Positions 7,560 through 28,275 are shown, counted from the first letter of the stretch. The stretch is DNA of 28,591 nt from an archaeon (GCA_024275415.1 JAJRZD010000086.1:1-28591), one strand, 5' to 3'. Translations and numbers: made by a program. Notes: a model not told the origin generated them from the sequence alone.

Positions 7560-8960
7560 TTAAGAGTCCCAATTCAAGAGTCTTTGTTCACCCTCAAGAC
7601 TTCGAATCTCAGTCACATCCTGTGAAACCTCCAAGGTTCCCATGAATTCTCCCTTGTCATCCCGTACTGCATAGTAGCCAATGACAATGAATCGACCACC
7701 TATTTGGATCCAGAACATTGCCTTGTCCTGTGTTCCCTCCCTGAATGCATCCATGATTGCTTTGACCTTGTCATAGCTCTTTTGCGGATGGCAATTGATG
7801 ACGCTTCTTCCGATGACCCCCGGACTACGTGGGAATACACGATCATCTGTCGCAGAGTAGTAGACGACCTTTTCATGAGCGTCCACGAATGAGATGTCAA
7901 TAGGCAGGTGCCTGAGAATCAGGTCGATTTCCTTCAGGGTCAGGTTTCCTGTGTTCAACTTGATCTTGGGTGATTCAGGTGCCTGGTCTGCTTGATGGAT
8001 GTCAATTGGAGTTATTGGCTCCCACTTGTTTCCTGGAGTCACCCAAGCATACCCGATCTCCTCTTCCCCTATCCTGACTCTTGCCCAATCGTATTCGGAT
8101 AACGTTTCTAGGGCCATTGGATAGAGTATGTTCTCCTCCTTGTATATCATATCCTCAATGGCCGCAAGCACCTTGTCGAGGCTCGATTCGCCGGCATCGT
8201 TCAGCATGTCCTTGATCTCATCTTGTTTTGCCCACATGACAGTAGAGGGACCTGTGATGCCCGCTTTTTCAAGGACTGGGAACAGCTGGTTCTGTAGTCG
8301 CTGGTAGTGTATCACTATCTTCTTCAACTCATCAAGGGTATCTGAATCACTGGGATTCTCTTTTAGGATCCCTACCAGTCGCCTTGCCTCGTTGTTCTCG
8401 CTCATGTAGGTGTTCACAGGGTGACCCGGAATGGACTCTGGCTTCTCTTGGACATCAAGAGACTCTTTGAACACCTGAATATGCAGGTCGCATAGTGCCG
8501 TCACCTGTTGAGCAGTAAGTTCTCCGGATGAGATTAGTGACTGCTCCATCTCTGCTATCTCCGTTGCGCTCACATCACCTAGTATCTCTTTGAACTCCTC
8601 TTGCAAAGGCTCTAGATCCTGACCTGCATGCAATTTTAGAACAAGCTCTTTTAGCTTCACTTGTCGCTTCTGAAGTTCCTCCTGCCATTCGCCTTTCTCT
8701 TGATCTTCTTTGTCAATGATCACATTTTCGTTCGCGTTCTTTGATATAGATTCAGAAAGTAGGACAAACAGACGGTTCAGGGGCACTTTCGAAATTTTGG
8801 ATACGTCTGTCAGTGTTGCTCTCTTGCCAATCGTCTTTTGCAGAATCGGGTTCTTCAATCGTTTCAATTTTGGTGAGATATCAACAAGCGTATCGAATAG
8901 GAAAGGGAATTTCTTCGCAAGATCCAATATCTTTGTGGACGCTTTCAGTGTGACAGTCAT
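7560..8960 (-). CDS. DUF438 domain protein (DUF1858 - DUF438 - hemerythrin-like - PAS_10)
   Basis: N-terminal DUF1858-like segment (LKNPILQKTIGKRATL); DUF438 segment (LKELVLKLHAG...SATEIAEMEQSLI...LCDLHIQVFK); hemerythrin-like segment (GHPVNTY...HY..LFPVLEKAGITGPSTVMW...MIYKEENILYP); C-terminal PAS (LPIDISFVD...FPRSPGVIGRSVINCHP). Confidence 0.88.
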   Translation of the reverse strand: MTVTLKASTKILDLAKKFPFLFDTLVDISPKLKRLKNPILQKTIGKRATLTDVSKISKVPLNRLFVLLSESISKNANENVIIDKEDQEKGEWQEELQKRQVKLKELVLKLHAGQDLEPLQEEFKEILGDVSATEIAEMEQSLISSGELTAQQVTALCDLHIQVFKESLDVQEKPESIPGHPVNTYMSENNEARRLVGILKENPSDSDTLDELKKIVIHYQRLQNQLFPVLEKAGITGPSTVMWAKQDEIKDMLNDAGESSLDKVLAAIEDMIYKEENILYPMALETLSEYDWARVRIGEEEIGYAWVTPGNKWEPITPIDIHQADQAPESPKIKLNTGNLTLKEIDLILRHLPIDISFVDAHEKVVYYSATDDRVFPRSPGVIGRSVINCHPQKSYDKVKAIMDAFREGTQDKAMFWIQIGGRFIVIGYYAVRDDKGEFMGTLEVSQDVTEIRSLEGEQRLLNWDS

Positions 8961-9343: not shown

Positions 9344-9940
9344 GTGGTGAGCAATCCGTCATTCATATTCAAGGTCTGTGTCATTGGCAATGGAGGAGTT
9401 GGTAAAAGTAGTGCTGTTCGCAGATACTCAGAGGGCATCTTCTCAGAAGAATACCAAGTAACAGTAGGCGTCAGCCATTCATCCCATACAATCGTCTTTG
9501 AAGGGACTGACGGGCCTACTGCAGTGAAGGTCATAATCTGGGATCTGGGCGGGCAAGACAAGTTCCGGTTTGTTCGACCCATGTTCTATAGAGCAGCCCG
9601 AGGACTCGTCTTGATGTTTGACATTACTGATAAGAGGTCATTCGAGGATCTCCCACGGTGGCTGAACGAGGCTCGTGAGAACATAGGATATGAAGTTCCA
9701 ATTGTCCTTGTGGCAAACAAGGTCGATTTGCCGAACCACGAGATCTCAGAAGAAGAAATCATTCGCTATGCTGATTTTCTCGGTGCTGAATACGTCCTGA
9801 CTTCTGTCAAGACCGGAGAGAATGTAGAGAACATGTTCGCAAAGCTTGCGGAGGTTCTCTATACGAATAGGGAGTCGGGAATACAGACAGGAACAAAAAA
9901 AATGGTTGAAATAACAACATCTTCTCAGGCAACTAGCTGA
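9344..9940 (+). CDS. Rab-like small GTPase (Ras superfamily)
   Basis: G1 GNGGVGKS, G2 T in QVTVG, G3 WDLGGQ, G4 NKVD, G5 TSVK. RabF-like motifs KVIIW, KFRFVR, FYRAA and LMFDIT. No C-terminal Cys. Confidence 0.93.
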   Translation: MVSNPSFIFKVCVIGNGGVGKSSAVRRYSEGIFSEEYQVTVGVSHSSHTIVFEGTDGPTAVKVIIWDLGGQDKFRFVRPMFYRAARGLVLMFDITDKRSFEDLPRWLNEARENIGYEVPIVLVANKVDLPNHEISEEEIIRYADFLGAEYVLTSVKTGENVENMFAKLAEVLYTNRESGIQTGTKKMVEITTSSQATS

Positions 9941-10081: not shown

Positions 10082-11872
10082 TCATAGTCTGTGACGAGCC
10101 CTGAATCTTGCTATCGCATCTGGTCCGGTTCTACCAAATCGTTTGTCGAGTTCCTCCTTTGAGATACGGATGATAGTCGGACGACCGTGGGCACAGTGAT
10201 ATTTCCCTTCGGTCGCGAACAATTCAGCTATCAGCCTTCGTGCTTCTTCATGTCCTATCTTCTGACCCGAGCGTATCGCAGCATGACATGCCGTGAGCCT
10301 TACGAGGTCGTCCATGAACTCGTTCATAGCAAGTCCCTCTCCAAGTTCGAGGATCCTGTCTACTAACGCAAGCATTTCATTCTCAGAGGCTCTTTTTCCC
10401 AGAATCTCAGGCAGGGTAGAAATCAGGATTTCATTCCCCCCAAAACTAGCGATGGAATATCCTAGCTTCTCCAGAGTTTCACCAAGCCCGAGAACCCTTT
10501 CAGCCTCGCTAACACCTAATCTCAACACAATGGGTTCCAGAAGCTCCTGAACCATGGCATTTCCTTCGCTGACTTGCTTTTTCAATTTCTCATAGAGGAT
10601 CCGCTCGTGTGCAGCGTGCTGGTCAACAATGACTAGTCCGTTCTCTGTTGCAATGACGATATAGACCATGCTTACCTGACCAAGGATGTTGAGGATCCTG
10701 CCAATCTCTTTGATGTCCAATTCTGCAACGTTTGAGGGCACTGGTTCCACAAGCATCGTTTCCTCAAGTAGTAGAGCCCGTCCTTCTGCCCTCGCGCTAT
10801 CTGCGTCAGGGAATATACTCGTTTCCTCTTGTTCGACCATCTCAGATTCCACAAGATACTCCAAGGACTCTGATCTGACTGCTGGTTTGATATCCAGAAG
10901 TACATTCGTGATGACAAATCCTAGAGTTTCTCTTATCAAGTCAAAATCTTGAACCCTGACCTCTTTTTTAGTGGGATGGACATTCGGGTCGACCTTCTCT
11001 GGCTCCAGTTCTATATCCAGCACAAAGATTGGATATCTACCTCTCATCAGGAGTGAGGAATAAGCAGTTTCTACCACTCTTTCCAGCGAAGGGTCAGATA
11101 TAGGGCGTTTCCTGATTGAGAAGAACTCTCTCCCGCGGTTTCCGCGAGATATTATGGGATTCGTAACGAACCCCTTAATGACAATCCTATTGCTGTAATT
11201 CACTTCTATCAGATTGTCCGCAACGTCAGGGCCCAACAGTGCGCGGATGCGTTCTTGAGGAGTCTGATTGCTGGGACAGTCAAAGACAGTCTTCTCGTCA
11301 CGCAGGAATCTGAATCCGACGTCATTCCGGACGATAGCATGTTTCATGATCGCAGCAAGCACTCGTTGGCTTTCCACTCTAGGTTCTGCCAGATGTTTCC
11401 TTCTTGCTGGAATAGTACTGAAGAGGTTACGTACGTCTACAGTTGTTCCTTGGGGTCTCGTGGCATCAGTGATATCGGGAATCTGCCCGGCCCTAGATTT
11501 GATACATGACCCAATCTCTTCGTCTTTGTGACGGGTTGTCACTTCAAGATCCGCGACTGCTGCAATACTGGCGAGTGCTTCCCCCCTGAAGCCATAGGTC
11601 ATAATCCTCTCTATATCATCTCGTGATGCAATCTTGCTCGTAGAATGTCTTATGGTCACAACGGGACAGTCTTCTTTGAGGATGCCCTCCCCGTTATCCG
11701 ATACCGTGATAGAATCGATTCCACCTTTCTCTATCCTTATGTCAATGTTGGTGGCGTTGGCGTCAAGAGAATTCTCGATAAGCTCTTTGACGATTGACGC
11801 TGGATTCTCTATGACCTCACCTGCCGAGATCAATGATACCAATGACTCGTCTAAAACTCTAATCTTTCCCAT
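10082..11872 (-). CDS. mutL: DNA mismatch repair endonuclease MutL
   Basis: GHKL motifs ISAGEVIENPASIVKELIENSLDA, DNGEGI, HSTSKI and GFRGEALASI; VDPNVHPTKKEV; endonuclease motif DQHAAHERILYE; QELLEP; ACH; CAHGRP. Confidence 0.96.
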   Translation of the reverse strand: MGKIRVLDESLVSLISAGEVIENPASIVKELIENSLDANATNIDIRIEKGGIDSITVSDNGEGILKEDCPVVTIRHSTSKIASRDDIERIMTYGFRGEALASIAAVADLEVTTRHKDEEIGSCIKSRAGQIPDITDATRPQGTTVDVRNLFSTIPARRKHLAEPRVESQRVLAAIMKHAIVRNDVGFRFLRDEKTVFDCPSNQTPQERIRALLGPDVADNLIEVNYSNRIVIKGFVTNPIISRGNRGREFFSIRKRPISDPSLERVVETAYSSLLMRGRYPIFVLDIELEPEKVDPNVHPTKKEVRVQDFDLIRETLGFVITNVLLDIKPAVRSESLEYLVESEMVEQEETSIFPDADSARAEGRALLLEETMLVEPVPSNVAELDIKEIGRILNILGQVSMVYIVIATENGLVIVDQHAAHERILYEKLKKQVSEGNAMVQELLEPIVLRLGVSEAERVLGLGETLEKLGYSIASFGGNEILISTLPEILGKRASENEMLALVDRILELGEGLAMNEFMDDLVRLTACHAAIRSGQKIGHEEARRLIAELFATEGKYHCAHGRPTIIRISKEELDKRFGRTGPDAIARFRARHRL

Positions 11873-20664: not shown

Positions 20665-21354
20665 CTATCTGTTCTTCTTGCGAAGGGCCTTGGCAAGTGC
20701 CATTACAAATTGCTCCATTGGTGGCATCGCTTCGGGCACGAGAACCACAGAAACAAACACATGGGGCTCCTTACGCGCAATTGAGAGACGTGTTAGATAG
20801 GGAGCGACACCGTCAAAACTCTCTCGAAATCGGGATGAATTAAAAAGCCTCTCACCAACCTCAGTATCGGATGTGACTATATAGAACCGGTCTCTCAGGT
20901 CTTCGATTGTCAGCTCACTGATACTATCCGGATGCGACTTCATTGATGTTTCCAGATTCTGTTGTTCCCTCCGAATTACTAGTTCAAGGTTCAGTGCCGG
21001 GCGCTTGGTCAGATTTGCCCGTATTTGGAGCTGGTCCGAGCGATGTCGTGCCTTGCAATAAGCAAGATGAAGGATGTTTGACCTGTCGAGTAGCAGGATT
21101 GTAGATTCAAGTTTTGGCAAAGGACTATCAGATTTTTGGTGATACGCGAATTTAGCTCCCGTATTACCTAGAAGTCTAACACTGACCTTTGATGTTGTTG
21201 ACTGAAACCGATTAGCAACATCCTGAGCAATCTTCCTGCGCAATCTTGAAGTGCCGTAACGTCCTATCATCCATGTCCCGATCAGGAAGAATGCCAGTCC
21301 GACGATGATTGCTTGTCCGGTCAGGGGGATGTCTTGCATTTGTTCGAACTCCAC
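20665..21354 (-). CDS. Single-pass membrane protein, probable CCDC47 (DUF1682, PAT complex subunit) homologue
   Basis: N-terminal TM followed by [23 protein letters not shown]...[10 protein letters not shown] and [14 protein letters not shown]. These parallel remembered human CCDC47 segments [22 protein letters not shown]...[10 protein letters not shown] and [14 protein letters not shown]. Confidence 0.6.
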   Translation of the reverse strand: [229 protein letters not shown]

Positions 21355-21413: not shown

Positions 21414-21663
21414 GGCATGGCTCTACTGGTGTGTTATACTTTTGAACACAGACAGGTAATCAAGGTTTCTTGTGAAAGAATCTACCAGTCGTTACTGCTG
21501 AGGTATCGTACTATCTTTAGAAATCATTCCAGTCAGACCTTTTGTTTCTCAAGAAACACAATTAATATATCCTCCTTCAGTTGTACCAGGATGGAGTCGG
21601 GATACCATGAATTCCAGCAAGCAAGTCGAGGGCACACGTGAGGTCTGTGTCGAAGCATGGAAC

Positions 21664-22224
21664 ATGATATTTGGTCGTGCAGTCTTTGTTTATCTTTTCC
21701 TCCCTCGCTCATGGATAACTGGCTACCAGCTGAATGATCCATTAGTAACAAATCGTTTTCTTTACAAGGATCGTGTATGGGTTGGCTCTGGCGAGATCGA
21801 ATGCCTTATTTCTCGTGAACATGGGCAACAGAAGCATCCTGACCTTGATTTCAGAACTAAGATACTAGTTGATCTGAAAAAGGGATTCCCAACCCCTCCG
21901 AGTCCACAAAGCCTTCGTAAGCAAGCTGTAAAGAAAGGCAGGGAAGTGGTAGATTGTGGAGAACTGCATACCGGTGGCCATTCGGGAAGCTATATCCTTT
22001 GGAAGTCATACCGTCCACGTTTCGGGATTTTTGGATCGCCACGTCTCAATGCGCAATTGCAGGGATTCATACCGTGTGAAGAAACCTCACGACTAATAGA
22101 AGTCATCTGGACCTCTCCCACTCCCAGCCTTGTTATTGATCAATCCGAGGTACTCATAGAGGCTCTGAACTCGATTCTTTGTCATGGACATGATATCGAA
22201 TCGTATGAGGACAACATCCTCTAG
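21664..22224 (+). CDS. Hypothetical protein (possible PsbP/Mog1-like fold, possible metal site)
   Basis: The ORF has protein-like composition. The start is placed at ATG 21664 (MIFGRAVFVYLFLP); the track start is 21607. Contains GGH, PCEETSR and a near-terminal LNSILCH. Confidence 0.65.
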   Translation: MIFGRAVFVYLFLPRSWITGYQLNDPLVTNRFLYKDRVWVGSGEIECLISREHGQQKHPDLDFRTKILVDLKKGFPTPPSPQSLRKQAVKKGREVVDCGELHTGGHSGSYILWKSYRPRFGIFGSPRLNAQLQGFIPCEETSRLIEVIWTSPTPSLVIDQSEVLIEALNSILCHGHDIESYEDNIL

Positions 22225-22374
22225 AGGCACTAGTTTGTTCTAATTGTTTCTAATGTATCAAATTCGGCAGTCCAAAAGTTTACCGACAGATTTAATGCTA
22301 GGATATACTATCGTTTTGTAACCGAGACCGAGAACTACACAAAACAAGTGAATCGGCCTTGGAGGTGGTTAGGT

Positions 22375-24156
22375 ATGCAACAGTTCTCACCTGCGATTTT
22401 TATCGGGGTTGGACTTGCGATCTATATTGTTGGCTATTTACTATATGCTAGGTATGTGGATCGCAATGTCTGGAGTCCGAATCCAAATGTAAAAACACCT
22501 GCACATATGTACATGGATGGAATAGAATTCTTTCCCACCTCAAAAAGTGTGCTATTTGGATTCCAATTCAAATCCATTGCTGCTCTTGGTCCCATCAGTG
22601 GGCCATTTATAGCATTGGTATTTGGCTGGTTGCCAGCATTTCTGTGGATAATATTCGGTACGTTCTTCATCGGGTGGATACATGACTACACATCCGTCAT
22701 GATCACTGTGCGTAGCGAAGGTGAATCCTTTGGTCCAATTACCTATCGGATGGTTGGATCACGAGCTCGCAAAGGTCTGATGGGTTTCATAATCTTCTAC
22801 CTGATTCTAGTAATGTCCGTATTCGCGTATATCTGTGGAGCATTCTTCAGGGCATTTACCCAAAGTATTGTTCCGACGATATTCGTAATTGTTGGGGGTG
22901 TGTTATCCGGAGTCATGCTGTACAAGCTGAGAATGAACATCGTTGTTTCCACAATTGTGGGTCTGGGACTCATGGTTGTCGGTATTTGGGCTGGGATATG
23001 GCTCTATCTACAGGGACTTCTGGATTGGGTTAGTTCTACACCTGTTGAACTGTGGATTGTTGTCGCTTTGATTCTGGTGTACTTCGGTGCCACATTGGCG
23101 ATAACAGATTGTGCTCAACCTGTAAACTATGTTGCCTTCTGGCCATGTTTCGTTGCAGTGATACTGATCATTGCCGGTGCTTTGCTCAGCCCCTTGACGA
23201 TGGCACTTTATCCGGCTGATCCTGTCCTAGTCCAGACTGAGCCGATCATAACCTTCTACGATGATAACTATGGTCCGCTTTGGCCTATACTATTTGTGGC
23301 AATTGCATGTGGTGCGGTGTCTGGATGGCATAGCTTGGTTGGTAGCAGTGCAACTGGCAAACAGATTGGGTCTGAAATTGATGTTCTTCCAGTTGCTGGT
23401 GGTTCTATGTTTCTTGAGGGGCTGTTGGCGATGAGTGCTATGTCAGCATACGTCGTCATTGCACCTGCAAGTGTGAATCCGGCATGGTTCGTCAATTTTC
23501 CAACTGGCGCAGCAATCCTTACTCAGGGGATGTTTGGTGGTGCCGCTGTGGCTGGAGTGATACTGGTCGCTTTCTTTGCAATGGTGCTAGAACTCTACGC
23601 TATCACTGTATTGCAGCTCATGCCACGGTTCTTCCGTTTGGCAGCAGCAGACCTTGCTGGAACCTCTGCAGTTGCTCCTCTATTTCGGAACAAATGGATT
23701 GGTGCTGGAATCGGAATACTCATTGCGTTTGCCTTTGCAGCCACTGGTGCGTGGTATCACCTCTGGATGTTATTCGGCGGTAGTAATCAGTTGCTCGCAG
23801 GGCTTGCGTTAATGCTTGCCTCAGTCTATCTGGTGCGTGCAAAGAAACCGTCGTACTATACACTGATACCCGCGGTTTTCATGATACTGACCTGTGAAGC
23901 TGCGCTTCTTTGGGAAACATGGATCTTCGTTCGCGCACTATTGACGGTTGGCTATTTCGCTAGACCCGGGAGTCTGATTGGTGATATGGCAGCTGCTGGT
24001 AACATATTGCCAGCAGTAGCGCTTACATGGATATTCATAGCTCTCTCTCTGATTCTGTTTGTTCTTGGATTGCTTGTGTTTGCGGACACATGGGCAGCAT
24101 TGAAACGCAGTTCTAAGGAAGCTAAGGGATCCGTTGAGGTAACTGTATCTGCTTAG
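22375..24156 (+). CDS. cstA: CstA (carbon starvation protein A)-family transporter
   Basis: TPAHMYMDGIEFFPT, LFGFQFKSIAALGPISGP, FGWLPAFLWII, WIHDY, LWPILFVAIACGAVSGWHSLV, GSMFLEGLLA and LFGGSNQLLAGLAL. RBS GGAGGTG at 22361-22367 precedes the ATG at 22375. Confidence 0.92.
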   Translation: MQQFSPAIFIGVGLAIYIVGYLLYARYVDRNVWSPNPNVKTPAHMYMDGIEFFPTSKSVLFGFQFKSIAALGPISGPFIALVFGWLPAFLWIIFGTFFIGWIHDYTSVMITVRSEGESFGPITYRMVGSRARKGLMGFIIFYLILVMSVFAYICGAFFRAFTQSIVPTIFVIVGGVLSGVMLYKLRMNIVVSTIVGLGLMVVGIWAGIWLYLQGLLDWVSSTPVELWIVVALILVYFGATLAITDCAQPVNYVAFWPCFVAVILIIAGALLSPLTMALYPADPVLVQTEPIITFYDDNYGPLWPILFVAIACGAVSGWHSLVGSSATGKQIGSEIDVLPVAGGSMFLEGLLAMSAMSAYVVIAPASVNPAWFVNFPTGAAILTQGMFGGAAVAGVILVAFFAMVLELYAITVLQLMPRFFRLAAADLAGTSAVAPLFRNKWIGAGIGILIAFAFAATGAWYHLWMLFGGSNQLLAGLALMLASVYLVRAKKPSYYTLIPAVFMILTCEAALLWETWIFVRALLTVGYFARPGSLIGDMAAAGNILPAVALTWIFIALSLILFVLGLLVFADTWAALKRSSKEAKGSVEVTVSA

Positions 24157-24248
24157 TGGAAAAGAGTAGCCTAACGGCTACCCTTCCCTTTTTTAGTCCA
24201 TGTAGAAACACTAATCTGACACGGTTCGGTGTTCTGCTCACTACGATA

Positions 24249-24524
24249 ATGGCGGAAATTTTTTTGCGGATTCTCAAGGTTATTCGGGACACTTTAGAAG
24301 GAATTTGGAAGGCTCAGAAAGCAGGTTTGGCTGGGCCGCTGATCAAAGCAAAAGTGGACAATGACAATGCTCTGATGTTTGTGATTCTTGGTGATATCTT
24401 GGGATTTCCATTCCAATCGACTTTCTACTCAAGACTGTTTTTGGTTTCTTTAATAGAACAGATTCCTTCATGGAAAAAGAGAATTCTGAAAGAACGTGAC
24501 ACTTTGGAGTACATGCACGATTAA
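24249..24524 (+). CDS. Small CstA/ArsA-associated protein 1 (cory-CC-star-like, no terminal CC), about 91 aa
   Basis: MAEIFLR...LMFVILGDILGFPFQSTFYSRLFL...WKKRILKERD; clearly paralogous to the next ORF. An alternative GTG at 24156 overlaps the cstA stop but adds an implausible N-terminus. Confidence 0.72.
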   Translation: MAEIFLRILKVIRDTLEGIWKAQKAGLAGPLIKAKVDNDNALMFVILGDILGFPFQSTFYSRLFLVSLIEQIPSWKKRILKERDTLEYMHD

Positions 24525-24622
24525 GACTTGTCCAATCGTTATTTGATAATGTATTGGACAGAGCCCATTTGATAATAAGAGTTATAGGGAACATTGCTAT
24601 CTATCCTTGCGGGGATTACCTA

Positions 24623-24910
24623 ATGAATGGCAAAGAGAACCCTGACGCTTCTAAAGAGCGTCGAGGCGCAAAAGAGACAGTAAAGGATTTCTTCTATGGT
24701 ATGGCCATGCAAGGTATGGCAAGGTATGCCCTGAAGACGAGGATGTACCTTGAACAGCTTTTCATGCTCATCACATTGGGTGATATGTTGGGCATTCCTA
24801 TCCTCCCTCCCTACTATTCTCTCAAGCTCCTACCTTATGCCGTTCCTAATATCAAGACTTGGAAACGTGGGCTATTCAAGGAACGTGACTTCACGGACGC
24901 TCTCTTCTAG
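24623..24910 (+). CDS. Small CstA/ArsA-associated protein 2 (cory-CC-star-like, no terminal CC), about 95 aa
   Basis: VKDFFYG...LEQLFMLITLGDMLGIPILPPYYSLKLLP...WKRGLFKERD. Resembles the remembered cory-CC-star core (DLFMLLVFSEMLGVPNP..YYTLELLP...W). Confidence 0.78.
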   Translation: MNGKENPDASKERRGAKETVKDFFYGMAMQGMARYALKTRMYLEQLFMLITLGDMLGIPILPPYYSLKLLPYAVPNIKTWKRGLFKERDFTDALF

Positions 24911-24959: not shown

Positions 24960-25967
24960 TTGGTAAAAAACATGAGCAGCTTTTACGAAGATAACCCTGA
25001 CCTGAAAATTGCGGTGTTTGCCGGGAAAGGAGGCCTTGGCAAGACCACCTGCAGTGCTGCACTGGCGATGTGGCTTTCGAAAAAGAAACAACGTGTTCTA
25101 TGTTTCAGTACGGATCCTCAGGCGTCTTTATCAGACATTTTCGAAAAAGATGTCTTCGGGAAAGGTTCTGTAACTTTGGATAAGAACCTCTATGTGATGG
25201 AAATTGATGCAGACAAGCGAATTGCTGCGTTTCAGGAAGAAGTCCGTCAAAAGATAAGAGACATGTACGGTATTGATGAGCTTCCAAAAGAAATTGATGA
25301 ATACATAAATGCCGCGGGAGCAGAACCTGCGATGCACGAGTCTGCCACTTATGACGCGATGGCCGGATTGTTGGCCTCCGACGAGTATAACTTCCATGTG
25401 TTCGACATGCCGCCCTTTGGGCATGGCATTCGGATTGTTTCAATGGCACGAATCCTCGATGTCTGGGTAGAAAAGATGGAAGAAACCAGAAAGAAAGCAC
25501 AAGAGTATGGTGAATCTGCTTGGAAGATGCAGCAGAGGACATCTGGTGCAGGTCAGGATGAGATGCTTGCGGAGTTGCTTGAGATTCGGAAGAAGCTCAG
25601 TTTCTTTCAGGATATTCTTACCGACAACAAGCGAACCGCATTCTATATGGTCATCACGCCTGAGAAAATGTCAATCTTGGACACTGAACGCGCATTGAAG
25701 ATGTTCGAGCAGATGGACATCACCCTCACCGGTGTAATCATCAATCAAGTGTATCCCAAAGAGTTGCTCCAAAGGAAAGATTTGGGCGATTTTCTCCGGA
25801 AACGAATTGAGATGCAGCAGAAGTATATGAATGAGATCAAAGATAAGTTGGGCAAACATGTATGTGCAGTCATCCCGATGTTCGATCGAGAGCCTAAAGG
25901 TCTCGAGATGATCCAGCAGGTAGCAGACATAATGATGAACTGGGATGGGAAGATAACGGAGGAGTAG
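24960..25967 (+). CDS. ArsA/Get3/TRC40-family ATPase, subunit 1 (catalytic motifs intact)
   Basis: Deviant Walker A GKGGLGKTT, switch I STDPQASLSDIF, switch II DMPPFGHGIR, TAFYMVITPEKMSILDTER and IINQV. Single ATPase domain. The start is TTG 24960 or ATG 24972. Confidence 0.9.
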   Translation: MVKNMSSFYEDNPDLKIAVFAGKGGLGKTTCSAALAMWLSKKKQRVLCFSTDPQASLSDIFEKDVFGKGSVTLDKNLYVMEIDADKRIAAFQEEVRQKIRDMYGIDELPKEIDEYINAAGAEPAMHESATYDAMAGLLASDEYNFHVFDMPPFGHGIRIVSMARILDVWVEKMEETRKKAQEYGESAWKMQQRTSGAGQDEMLAELLEIRKKLSFFQDILTDNKRTAFYMVITPEKMSILDTERALKMFEQMDITLTGVIINQVYPKELLQRKDLGDFLRKRIEMQQKYMNEIKDKLGKHVCAVIPMFDREPKGLEMIQQVADIMMNWDGKITEE

Positions 25968-25970
25968 AAA

Positions 25971-26981
25971 ATGAGTGATTTCAAATTCAAGGACTTCGTC
26001 GAGCGACATCCAAACATCAAGTTTTTCTTCACGGGTGGTAAGGGAGGTGTAGGTAAGACTGTTAGTGCCGCTGCTATTGCCCAATATTTTGCTTCTCAGG
26101 GACGGAAGGCACTTCTTGCCTCTCTAAATCCAATCCACTCCCTTTCGACGTTGTACGGGCAAGATATGTGGGGGAAAGGAATTCAGAAGATTGAAGGAAT
26201 CGATAATCTGTGGGGTGTTGAGGTCGATATCAAAGAGAAGATATCGACATATCGTGACCAGCTTAGCGAACGCATCACCTCATTTCTCAAGTGGGCTGAT
26301 ATTCCTGTTGACCCCTCGGCATTCATTGATATCGCAGTCACTAATCCGGCCTTTGAAGAGTCGGCCCAGTTTGACACCATGACTGATATCATGCTTGAGC
26401 ATGGCGACTCTTATGACGTAATTGTGTTTGATTGTGCTGCTGTTGCCAATGCTATCCGGTTGCTCGGTCTTAGCAAGATTTACGACTTGTGGCTTAGCCG
26501 CATGATTGAGAGCCGGAAGGAGGCTTTGTCTTTACGTGTGCAACTATCTTTCAGAAGAGATAGGGTCATGGAAGAGGTCAAACGTGATCCGATGCTTGCG
26601 GATCTCTTGAGACAACATGAGAAGAACCGTAAAGCGAAGGAAATACTTAGTGACGCAGAAAGAACGGCATTCGTATTCGTGACAATCCCATTGGCGCTGC
26701 CGATTGCTGTCGTGCAGCGGTTCATATCGATGGTCCGCGCTTTTGACATCCCTGTCGGAGGAGTCTTTGTTAATAGGGTCATCCCACAGGAGGCAGCCGA
26801 ATCAGACTCGACGGACTACATGAAGAATAGCTATCTACAGCAATCACGATACCTAGATATGATACAAGAAAAATTGGGCGATTTGGTATCAGCCTATGTC
26901 CCTCTGTATCCCACAGAAGTGGCTGGTGTGGATGGGATTGCAAAGTTCTGTGATGACATGCTGAACTTTAATCCTGAGTAG
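25971..26981 (+). CDS. ArsA/Get3/TRC40-family ATPase, subunit 2 (degenerate catalytic motifs)
   Basis: GKGGVGKTVS; switch I SLNPIHSLS (Asn in place of the catalytic Asp); switch II DCAAVANAIRLL; TAFVFVTIP; FVNRV. RBS GGAG, with a 3-bp gap after subunit 1. Confidence 0.9.
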   Translation: MSDFKFKDFVERHPNIKFFFTGGKGGVGKTVSAAAIAQYFASQGRKALLASLNPIHSLSTLYGQDMWGKGIQKIEGIDNLWGVEVDIKEKISTYRDQLSERITSFLKWADIPVDPSAFIDIAVTNPAFEESAQFDTMTDIMLEHGDSYDVIVFDCAAVANAIRLLGLSKIYDLWLSRMIESRKEALSLRVQLSFRRDRVMEEVKRDPMLADLLRQHEKNRKAKEILSDAERTAFVFVTIPLALPIAVVQRFISMVRAFDIPVGGVFVNRVIPQEAAESDSTDYMKNSYLQQSRYLDMIQEKLGDLVSAYVPLYPTEVAGVDGIAKFCDDMLNFNPE

Positions 26982-27726: not shown

Positions 27727-28275
27727 ATGCGTATCTCAGGTTCAGATGAAGAGAACAAGTCCGTTATTGATGTTGCTCGACTCATGCTCCTCGCTGCGAG
27801 AACCGCTCCCAAAGCTGGAGGTAAGGATGATATCGAAACCATGATTCTCACAGGTGATGACAAAGATGACATTGCTAAGGAGATGCGGAAGATGGCCGAA
27901 GTGTATGGAGACATGTTTGTTCGAGATGCGATCAACGTGGAACAGGCATCCGCACTCATGCTTATCGGACTAAAGGGTTTCAAGTCGGTTGGAGTGAATT
28001 GCGGCGCTTGTGGATATGAAACATGTGCTGATTTCACCGATGCCGACCAAAAACACGGAGCAGCATTCACCGGGCCTATCTGTGTCATAAAAGCTCTCGA
28101 TCTTGGTATAGCATTAGGAAGTGCGGTCAAGACCGCACAAATACACAATGTCGATAACCGCGTCTTCTATCGGTCAGGTGCAGCAGCCATCAATCTAAAA
28201 GTGATGCCAGACTGCCCAATAATACTATGTATTCCCCTCTCAGCAACCGGCAAGAACGTCTTCTTTGATCGGTAG
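27727..28275 (+). CDS. DUF2148 / ferredoxin-domain Fe-S protein (nitroreductase-like)
   Basis: LLAARTAPKAGGKDDI, NCGACGYETC, GPICVIKALDLGIALGSAVKTA and VDNRV. RBS GGTGA precedes the ATG at 27727. Confidence 0.85.
   Translation: MRISGSDEENKSVIDVARLMLLAARTAPKAGGKDDIETMILTGDDKDDIAKEMRKMAEVYGDMFVRDAINVEQASALMLIGLKGFKSVGVNCGACGYETCADFTDADQKHGAAFTGPICVIKALDLGIALGSAVKTAQIHNVDNRVFYRSGAAAINLKVMPDCPIILCIPLSATGKNVFFDR

Follow-up and report, generated by a model that had tools for sequence, protein, structure and literature searches.

A tandem pair of Get3/ArsA-fold ATPases in an Asgard CstA module as a candidate asymmetric heterodimer with one complete and one degenerate catalytic site

Introduction

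ATPases of the Get3/ArsA family are usually portrayed as symmetric homodimers or as fused pseudo-dimers, in either case with two catalytic sites. A 28,591-nucleotide (nt) stretch of Asgard archaeon DNA (GCA_024275415.1 JAJRZD010000086.1:1-28591), which we call the window throughout, raises the question of whether a motor of this family can be built with one site that does not fire. Beside a gene for a CstA-family permease, the window carries two adjacent genes for proteins of the Get3/ArsA fold, an upstream subunit 1 (S1) with a complete catalytic site and a downstream subunit 2 (S2, 25971-26981, + strand) in which that site is degenerate; the database proteins nearest to both are labelled Thorarchaeota or Hermodarchaeia. 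A sequence-only reading of the window had proposed that S2 is a natural counterpart of the D57N mutant of yeast Get3, and that the two proteins form a one-sided, asymmetric engine. We followed up this proposal by comparative sequence analysis, phylogenetics and structure prediction, and found the changes in S2 to be fixed across archaea and bacteria. From these comparisons and from modelling, S1 and S2 are probably the two subunits of a motor in which one ATP site works and the other does not.

The proposal draws on a well-studied catalytic mechanism. In yeast Get3, D57 primes the attacking water, the D57N mutant keeps ATP bound without hydrolysing it, and K26, T32 and T33 are key residues of the P-loop (PMC12506534; PMC10248533). 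Adenine is selected by an Asn of strand beta7 together with the A-loop, which touches both adenine and ribose (PMC10248533), and the signature Lys acts as a finger that reaches from the opposite subunit to the alpha and gamma phosphates (bioRxiv 10.1101/2022.06.23.497298). These accounts agree with the two premises of the sequence-only reading, namely that D57N separates binding from hydrolysis and that the signature Lys works across the dimer.

Results

S2 is a Get3/ArsA-fold paralogue whose catalytic site is altered in the same way throughout its family

S2 is an open reading frame (ORF) of 336 amino acids (aa) that scores 195 bits against PF02374 (curated cut-off 24.3 bits) and 209 bits against TIGR00345 (cut-off 135 bits). 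S1 (24960-25967, + strand) exceeds both cut-offs as well, with 246 and 229 bits, and is 30% identical to S2 over the full length; its ORF spans 335 aa from a TTG codon, although the likelier start, judging from its orthologues, is the ATG at 24972, which gives the 331 aa seen in them. Archaeal Get3/TRC40 (M. jannaschii 3UG6/3UG7 and M. thermautotrophicus 3ZQ6) provides both the best sequence match (E 1e-49 to 1e-54) and the best fold match, with the AlphaFold2 model of S2 (predicted local distance difference test score, pLDDT, 84.8) matching 3ZQ6 at a template modelling (TM) score of 0.76/0.83. The top matches of this model in the Protein Data Bank are all Get3/TRC40 structures (TM score 0.70-0.77 over ~330 columns, its full length), whose fold joins a SIMIBI core to a helical subdomain, and the D57N structure of Get3, 9NS5, is among its fold matches. 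Because a HMMER alignment to 3UG6 and 3ZQ6 places Asn53 of S2 beneath the Asp of STDP and its DCAAVAN beneath DTAPTGH, the motif positions of S2 can be taken as truly equivalent to those of Get3.

We compared S2 across three sets of relatives. The first comprises its 120 closest orthologues (56-100% identity), mostly from archaeal metagenome-assembled genomes (Asgard, Bathyarchaeia and Thermoproteota), plus Anaerolineae and Bacillota; the second comprises 80 independent genome loci gathered via S2 down to 41% identity, from Chloroflexota, Acidobacteriota, Desulfobacterota, Burkholderiales, Bacillota, Actinomycetota and several archaeal groups; and the third consists of representatives of 50%-identity clusters drawn from 1.8 billion proteins. 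At the position of yeast Get3 D57, the window's S2 has Asn53 (codon AAT, 26127-26129) within an S-L-N-P motif, and Asn occupies this position in 120 of 120 close orthologues and in the S2 genes of 80 of 80 loci, which rules out a one-off mutation or a sequencing error. The motif extends as S-L-N-P-[VI]-H-S-L in all 120 orthologues and as S[TL]NP[VI]HSL across the loci, and those S2-type representatives in which switch I is visible have Asn, in one case Ser, and never Asp.

Three further positions of the catalytic site are altered and fixed along with D57. The deviant Walker A motif of S2, GKGGVGKTV (26037-26063), retains the signature Lys24 and the Walker Lys29 and has Val in place of the second Thr (yeast Get3 T33); GKGGVGKT is unchanged, and the signature Lys never lost, in all 120 orthologues and all 80 loci, while the next residue is V, I or A and never T (only I or V among the 120 closest). 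Switch II reads DCAAVAN (26430-26450), in which the Walker B Asp is retained while Ala stands in for Gly and Asn for His; the extended pattern FD[CT]AAVANA.RL is unchanged in all 120 orthologues. Since most bacterial S2 proteins read DTAPTAN here, the Gly-to-Ala and His-to-Asn replacements are the consistent S2 changes in switch II, except that His is retained in three loci, which read DTAPVAH.

The elements of S2 that correspond to nucleotide binding are unchanged in bacteria and archaea alike. They include, besides GKGGVGKT, the Walker B Asp154, Asn268 of strand beta7 (within VNR, 26772-26774), which corresponds to the adenine-selecting Asn of Get3, and Pro311 and Glu316 of the A-loop region (26901-26927), where Gly319 is nearly unchanged as well. 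The only Cys residues of S2, at 155 and 327, are both variable among orthologues.

S1 retains the complete catalytic site

S1 carries the Walker A motif GKGGLGKTT with the signature Lys23 (25023-25049), the catalytic Asp52 (codon GAT, 25113-25115) in S-T-D-P, and a switch II, DMPPFGH, that retains Gly and His (25404-25424). Throughout a set of 121 sequences (the window's own S1 and its 120 closest relatives), FSTDPQASLSD and FDMPPFGHG.R are unchanged. The switch I Asp is present in all 74 aligned S1 genes of the genome loci, and is also visible in four variants with a GGGG signature that the P-loop filter had set aside; wherever inspected in these two collections, S1 retains both the Asp and the Gly-His of switch II. 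The motifs that the sequence-only reading had picked out in the two genes, including the signature Lys within GKGG in both, were all recovered in the ORFs at the positions it gave, and the comparison it called for across the second paralogue returned Asn and the switch II changes in all three sets, and in none of them the Asp that would have counted against that reading.

S1 and S2 stem from one duplication and are inherited together

In a maximum-likelihood tree, S1 and S2 each form one clade (support 99/98 and 100/99, respectively) and group together as sister clades (98/99) to the exclusion of canonical Asgard Get3. Their stem branches measure 0.74 for S1 and 0.81 for S2, and their internal topologies mirror one another. 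On this tree, the two subunits arose in one old duplication. An ATPase from a CstA module with a single ATPase gene (P0318, locus L117) has canonical STDP and DTAPTGH motifs and branches outside the S1+S2 clade, so that, with a root on the canonical side, the changes in S2 would be derived. Across loci, the pairwise identities of S1 and those of S2 are tightly correlated (r=0.96), with means of 0.681 and 0.666. Because these means are nearly equal, the stems are similar, and both the binding residues and the altered motifs are unchanged, S2 is as constrained as S1 and not decaying.

The two genes also keep a strict arrangement. In each of the 77 loci where S1 and S2 both scored as full length, S1 lies directly upstream of S2; the junction is mostly tiny or overlapping, and the P-loop of S2 starts a median of 83 nt past the S1 stop codon. 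At the junction in the window (25955-25973), a GGAGGAG in the end of S1 is followed by its TAG stop (25965-25967), a 3-nt spacer and the S2 start codon (ATG, from 25971), and the Shine-Dalgarno-like GGAGG within S1 suggests that translation of the two is coupled. A search for sequencing runs bearing on expression or co-transcription returned none.

Complex prediction places the two subunits as in a Get3 dimer

A complex prediction of S1 and S2 with two ATP and two Mg scored 0.61, compared with 0.00 for the best of three controls; this mark is attained by 58 of 80 solved complexes and by 2 of 110 mismatched pairs. Prediction runs had at least 56% of contacts in common, with a partner pLDDT of at least 74. 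In the model, the P-loops come face to face (residues 19-21 of S1 with 24-27 of S2), and the main contact is formed by the region that in Get3 holds the CxxC zinc clasp.

One S1 clade has lost the signature Lys that would complete the S2 site

Loss of the signature Lys is confined to S1. In the four loci with the GGGG variant (L047, L062, L064 and L074), whose S1 P-loops read GGGGVGKTT, S1 has Gly at this position, the genes are intact, and the S2 partners keep GKGG. The carriers are two Burkholderiales, one beta-proteobacterium and one Pseudolabrys (e.g., L062:4881-5852); the four S1 sequences are 88-92% identical and form one clade, and when 300 genomes from the class to which the L062 genome belongs were searched, the module turned up in the starting genome only. 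Since in a sandwich dimer the Lys of S1 would complete the S2 site, and that of S2 the live site, loss of the Lys in S1 is the outcome expected of a dead S2 site, and this clade is hard to fit with S1 homodimers.

Degenerate relatives were also seen outside the pair. A group of fused, canonical-type tandem Get3/ArsA proteins of ~525-660 aa (P0298, P0295, P0299, P0301, P0321 and P0326) has a degenerate N-terminal half with DTAAGAH, which in P0298 additionally reads YSVNPAHS, with Asn; the C-terminal half of these fusions is canonical (GKGGCGKTT, STDPQ.S, DTAPTGH). They look like an independent, fused instance of the same asymmetry. A further type of degenerate Get3 paralogue may be represented by an ArsA-family protein of 341 aa that stands alone in a genome of the same phylum (L114:1495-2520) and sits on a very long branch; it has GKGGVGKS, SFDMAHN and CDFC, and its switch II ends in PPTAN (His to Asn).

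The pair is distinct from canonical Get3, the arsenic pump ArsA and BagA/BagB

The pair shares with archaeal Get3 the deviant Walker A motif with its signature Lys, the A-loop and the format of a ~330-aa single-domain protein, and Get3 dimerises. In Get3, however, two identical subunits each contribute the catalytic Asp, so that both sites have it; Get3 also has a CxxC zinc clasp, and its client groove is rich in Met. In the aligned CxxC region neither S1 nor S2 has a Cys, whereas the canonical Get3 of the same genome has CKFC. By composition, Met makes up 0.4% of the first helical segment in S2 and 3.5% in S1, compared with 10.5% in canonical Get3, and charged residues make up 40% of it in the pair compared with 25% in canonical Get3; the second helical segment of S2 equals that of canonical Get3 in Met (7.2%), and the helical subdomain of the pair is more charged throughout. 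The genome's own canonical Get3 (G000, contig C111:5231-6142, L081) has STDP, DTAPTGH and CKFC and scores 301 bits against PF02374. A classical Get3 reading of the pair is weakened by the lack of CxxC, by the composition of the groove and by the existence of this separate protein. Canonical Get3 was found in 21 of 21 searched genomes of the window's lineage, including its own, whereas the S1/S2 pair was found in only ~5, and so the pair is an accessory module.

The D57N mutant of yeast Get3 has the same substitution at the same position as S2, and it binds ATP and forms a closed dimer without hydrolysis (PMC12506534). In that mutant both sites are dead, whereas in S2 the change is natural, affects one of two paralogues, and goes together with P-loop and switch II substitutions that are likewise fixed.

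E. coli ArsA (1F48), a fused A1-A2 pseudo-dimer, matches S1 and S2 at 87-92 bits. Its halves are non-identical Get3/ArsA folds that form two composite sites with unequal behaviour, as we propose for S1 and S2, but it is a single polypeptide, each half of which has Asp and DTAPTGH, whereas S1 and S2 are two genes and have no conserved Cys. ArsA has three metalloid-binding Cys and works with ArsB, and single-domain homologues without those Cys have been described (PMC2963123). We rejected an arsenic pump for the pair, which scores 96-97 bits against TIGR04291 (cut-off 650) and consists of single domains of ~335 aa compared with ~580 aa for the fused protein. No ars-type Pfam family (the context of arsB/acr3, arsR and arsD) was detected in any sizeable ORF of the 28.6-kb window. 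Orthologues of S1 and S2 (P0002, P0003, P0124 and others) are publicly labelled 'arsenite-transporting ATPase' or 'arsenic transporter', labels for which this context offers no support.

A tandem pair of Get3-like ATPases, BagA/BagB (Rv3679/Rv3680) of M. tuberculosis, has reportedly been found to form a complex (Hu et al. 2019, Whitaker et al. 2020), a bacterial Get3-like heterodimer (6BS3-6BS5); it is not known to be linked to CstA. The pair studied here is not BagA/BagB, as it scores 48-49 bits against the NCBIfam model for BagA (NF053622, cut-off 400) and 32-35 bits against that for BagB (NF053621, cut-off 521). The match to 6BS3, at 33 bits and over the P-loop region only, indicates a distant relationship.

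The pair belongs to a CstA-CstX module

In the window, the pair closes a row of genes on the + strand that starts with the CstA-family permease (22348-24156; PF02554, 321 bits) and continues with two paralogous small CstX-like proteins (24156-24910, at approximately 24249-24524 and 24554/24623-24910), which match NF041419 weakly and have one moderately hydrophobic segment each (maximum KD19 ~1.5). Across most of the 80 loci, CstA adjoins the pair and one or two small CstX-like genes precede S1, usually in the same order. S1 and S2 accordingly have the hallmarks of the CstA-associated ArsA homologues, which are single-domain ATPases of ~330 aa whose genes accompany cstA and a cstX for a ~90-aa product. 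Operons of this kind, cstA-cstX(-cstY)-arsA-homologue, were described computationally by Castillo & Saier 2010 (Int J Microbiol 2010:187373, PMC2963123), who reported tandem ATPase pairs in Pyrobaculum arsenaticum and Symbiobacterium thermophilum (their cluster 15) and stated that the Asp of the SXD motif of single-domain homologues 'can be substituted only by N'. Their clusters 14-18 represent the same module, with cstA, one or two cstX-like genes and ~330-aa ArsA homologues and with no arsenic genes, and a Symbiobacterium locus (L007) falls among the S1-S2 loci; Castillo & Saier neither split the ATPases into D-type and N-type paralogues nor proposed an asymmetric heterodimer.

Several neighbouring genes were observed around the module, which may exceed five genes. 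On the opposite strand, 20665-21354 (-) encodes a 229-aa protein with an N-terminal transmembrane helix and no Pfam match, whose size and layout fit the CstY of Castillo & Saier, and relatives of it lie within 6 kb of S1-S2 in 20 of 80 other loci (plain phmmer). A 205-aa ORF of no known family (21607-22224, +) recurs near the module in 7 other loci, and a DUF2148 ferredoxin-domain protein (27727-28275, +) recurs downstream of S2 in 5. In the single-ATPase module (L117:4349-7775), a DUF7990 small protein (98 aa) overlaps the 328-aa canonical-motif ArsA homologue, followed by a 101-aa protein and a convergent CstA, and FAD/CCG oxidoreductase genes flank it. Elsewhere in the window, a Ras-family small GTPase (9344-9940, +; PF00071, 137 bits), typical of Asgard genomes, lies beside a MutL homologue (10082-11872) and a DUF438/hemerythrin/PAS protein (7560-8960).

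Discussion

How might such a pair work? We infer that S1 and S2 heterodimerise, that S2 binds ATP but does not hydrolyse it, and that the pair is coupled to CstA and CstX. S1 and S2 would then form an obligate heterodimeric Get3/ArsA-fold ATPase that is the partner of the CstA permease and the CstX-like proteins. The dimer would be closed in the manner of Get3, with two ATP molecules enclosed between opposed P-loops and each subunit lending its signature Lys to the partner's site. The site built by S1 would be complete, with GKTT, Asp52, the Gly-His of switch II and Lys24 of S2, and would be the sole site with a useful rate of hydrolysis. The site built by S2 would still bind ATP through its unchanged P-loop, Walker B Asp, Asn268 and A-loop. 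Because that site has lost the water-activating Asp, the second Thr of the P-loop and, in all but three loci, the Gly-His that would sense the gamma phosphate, hydrolysis by S2 is expected to be very slow or nil, and the site would serve as a nucleotide-dependent latch or regulator. Heterodimeric ATP-binding cassette (ABC) exporters such as TM287/288, TAP1/2 and CFTR offer a parallel to such a one-sided engine: their sites lie at the interface, and substitutions from both subunits converge on one site, which binds ATP but barely hydrolyses it. Fold and family are unrelated and the likeness is one of logic only; in S1/S2, the changes in cis and the dispensable trans Lys of S1 likewise map to one site. 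Extending this, all the degenerate features (four cis changes in S2 plus the dispensable Lys of S1) would fall on a single site of a half-dead motor, in which a permanently ATP-loaded latch keeps the dimer closed while the live site drives CstA via the paired CstX adaptors; we offer this fuller picture tentatively, as a possibility with slightly less than an even chance of holding.

Several observations weigh against a heterodimer with one dead site. The passing score of the complex prediction may stem from likeness to solved Get3 homodimers, and such a model cannot tell a heterodimer from homodimers. The loci were collected via S2, so that S1 without S2 is not symmetrically assessed, and the loss of the signature Lys in S1 is a single evolutionary event. 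Asn is able to position water in some P-loop enzymes, which would make slow hydrolysis by S2 possible. A search for longer proteins and among the representatives returned no natural S1-S2 fusion and so no Rosetta-stone support: P0241 and P0242 were rejected as frameshift-ridden read-throughs, and every fused representative of 600-900 aa resembles canonical Get3/ArsA more closely than it does S1 or S2. Castillo & Saier suggested that the ArsA homologues energise CstA, possibly as homodimers (PMC2963123), and our literature search found no biochemical or structural data on any member of the pair.

The asymmetric heterodimer of the sequence-only reading therefore has to be set against other arrangements. 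The comparison (fixed changes, unchanged binding elements, co-inheritance and the Lys pattern) and the dimer model make it the best supported, and a probable, reading. In an arrangement that we regard as unlikely, S1 and S2 do form a heterodimer but S2 is a slow, real ATPase that acts as a timer, with Asn53 orienting the water and hydrolysis in S2 resetting the cycle. The S2 pocket is unchanged but for four residues, as would suit a site that still turns over, and a Get3d homologue with Glu at the D57 position keeps some activity at a lower Vmax (PMC10248533). Yet those four residues (T33, D57 and the Gly and His of switch II) are altered together and fixed family-wide, D57N by itself has been used to trap ATP-bound Get3 (PMC12506534), and the trans Lys that would feed the S2 site is dispensable in one clade.

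That the two proteins are merely co-expressed, S1 as an active homodimer and S2 as an ATP-locked homodimer with another job such as sensor or scaffold, strikes us as more improbable still. Get3 is homodimeric, as the single-ATPase CstA modules possibly are, and the inability of the complex prediction to separate the two arrangements leaves room for this one. It sits poorly, however, with the strict adjacency of the genes and junctions that suggest coupled translation, and with the mirrored trees and tightly correlated identities; moreover, an S1 of the GGGG clade could not activate itself, yet its gene is intact and its S2 partner unchanged. Of these arrangements, we consider it the least likely, and very improbable, that S2 has given up nucleotide binding and serves only in a structural or adaptor role. 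By its motifs S2 is a pseudo-enzyme, but a P-loop, Asp154, Asn268 and Pro311/Glu316 that are unchanged in both bacteria and archaea would be unexpected in an empty pocket. We thus retain the heterodimer with an ATP-binding, non-hydrolysing S2. Its description as a 'Get3-type engine', by contrast, was overstated given the absence of the CxxC clasp and the Met-rich groove, the CstA/CstX module and the separate canonical Get3, and should be softened to 'Get3/ArsA-fold, CstA-linked'.

While the cstA-cstX-arsA module itself is already known (PMC2963123), the split into D-type and N-type paralogues and the asymmetric-heterodimer reading appear to be new: a literature search covering Get3 with ArsA and CstA, CstX, and Asn-bearing Get3 paralogues found no experimental work and no such proposal. 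Our analysis corrects the routine 'arsenite-transporting ATPase' annotation of both genes, and the pair hints at a possible role for an ATPase next to permeases of the CstA family, commonly regarded as carriers coupled to protons; this role could be in the energisation, regulation or biogenesis of CstA. With S2, a D57N-type partner that is naturally fixed over many phyla becomes available as a system in which to probe one site when the other cannot fire, a question otherwise addressed in Get3 via engineered mutants. If the proposed asymmetry is true, it would represent a mode of action undescribed for the ArsA/Get3 family, fixed before the module spread over bacteria and archaea, and would provide a natural model for the origin of the A1/A2 asymmetry of ArsA.

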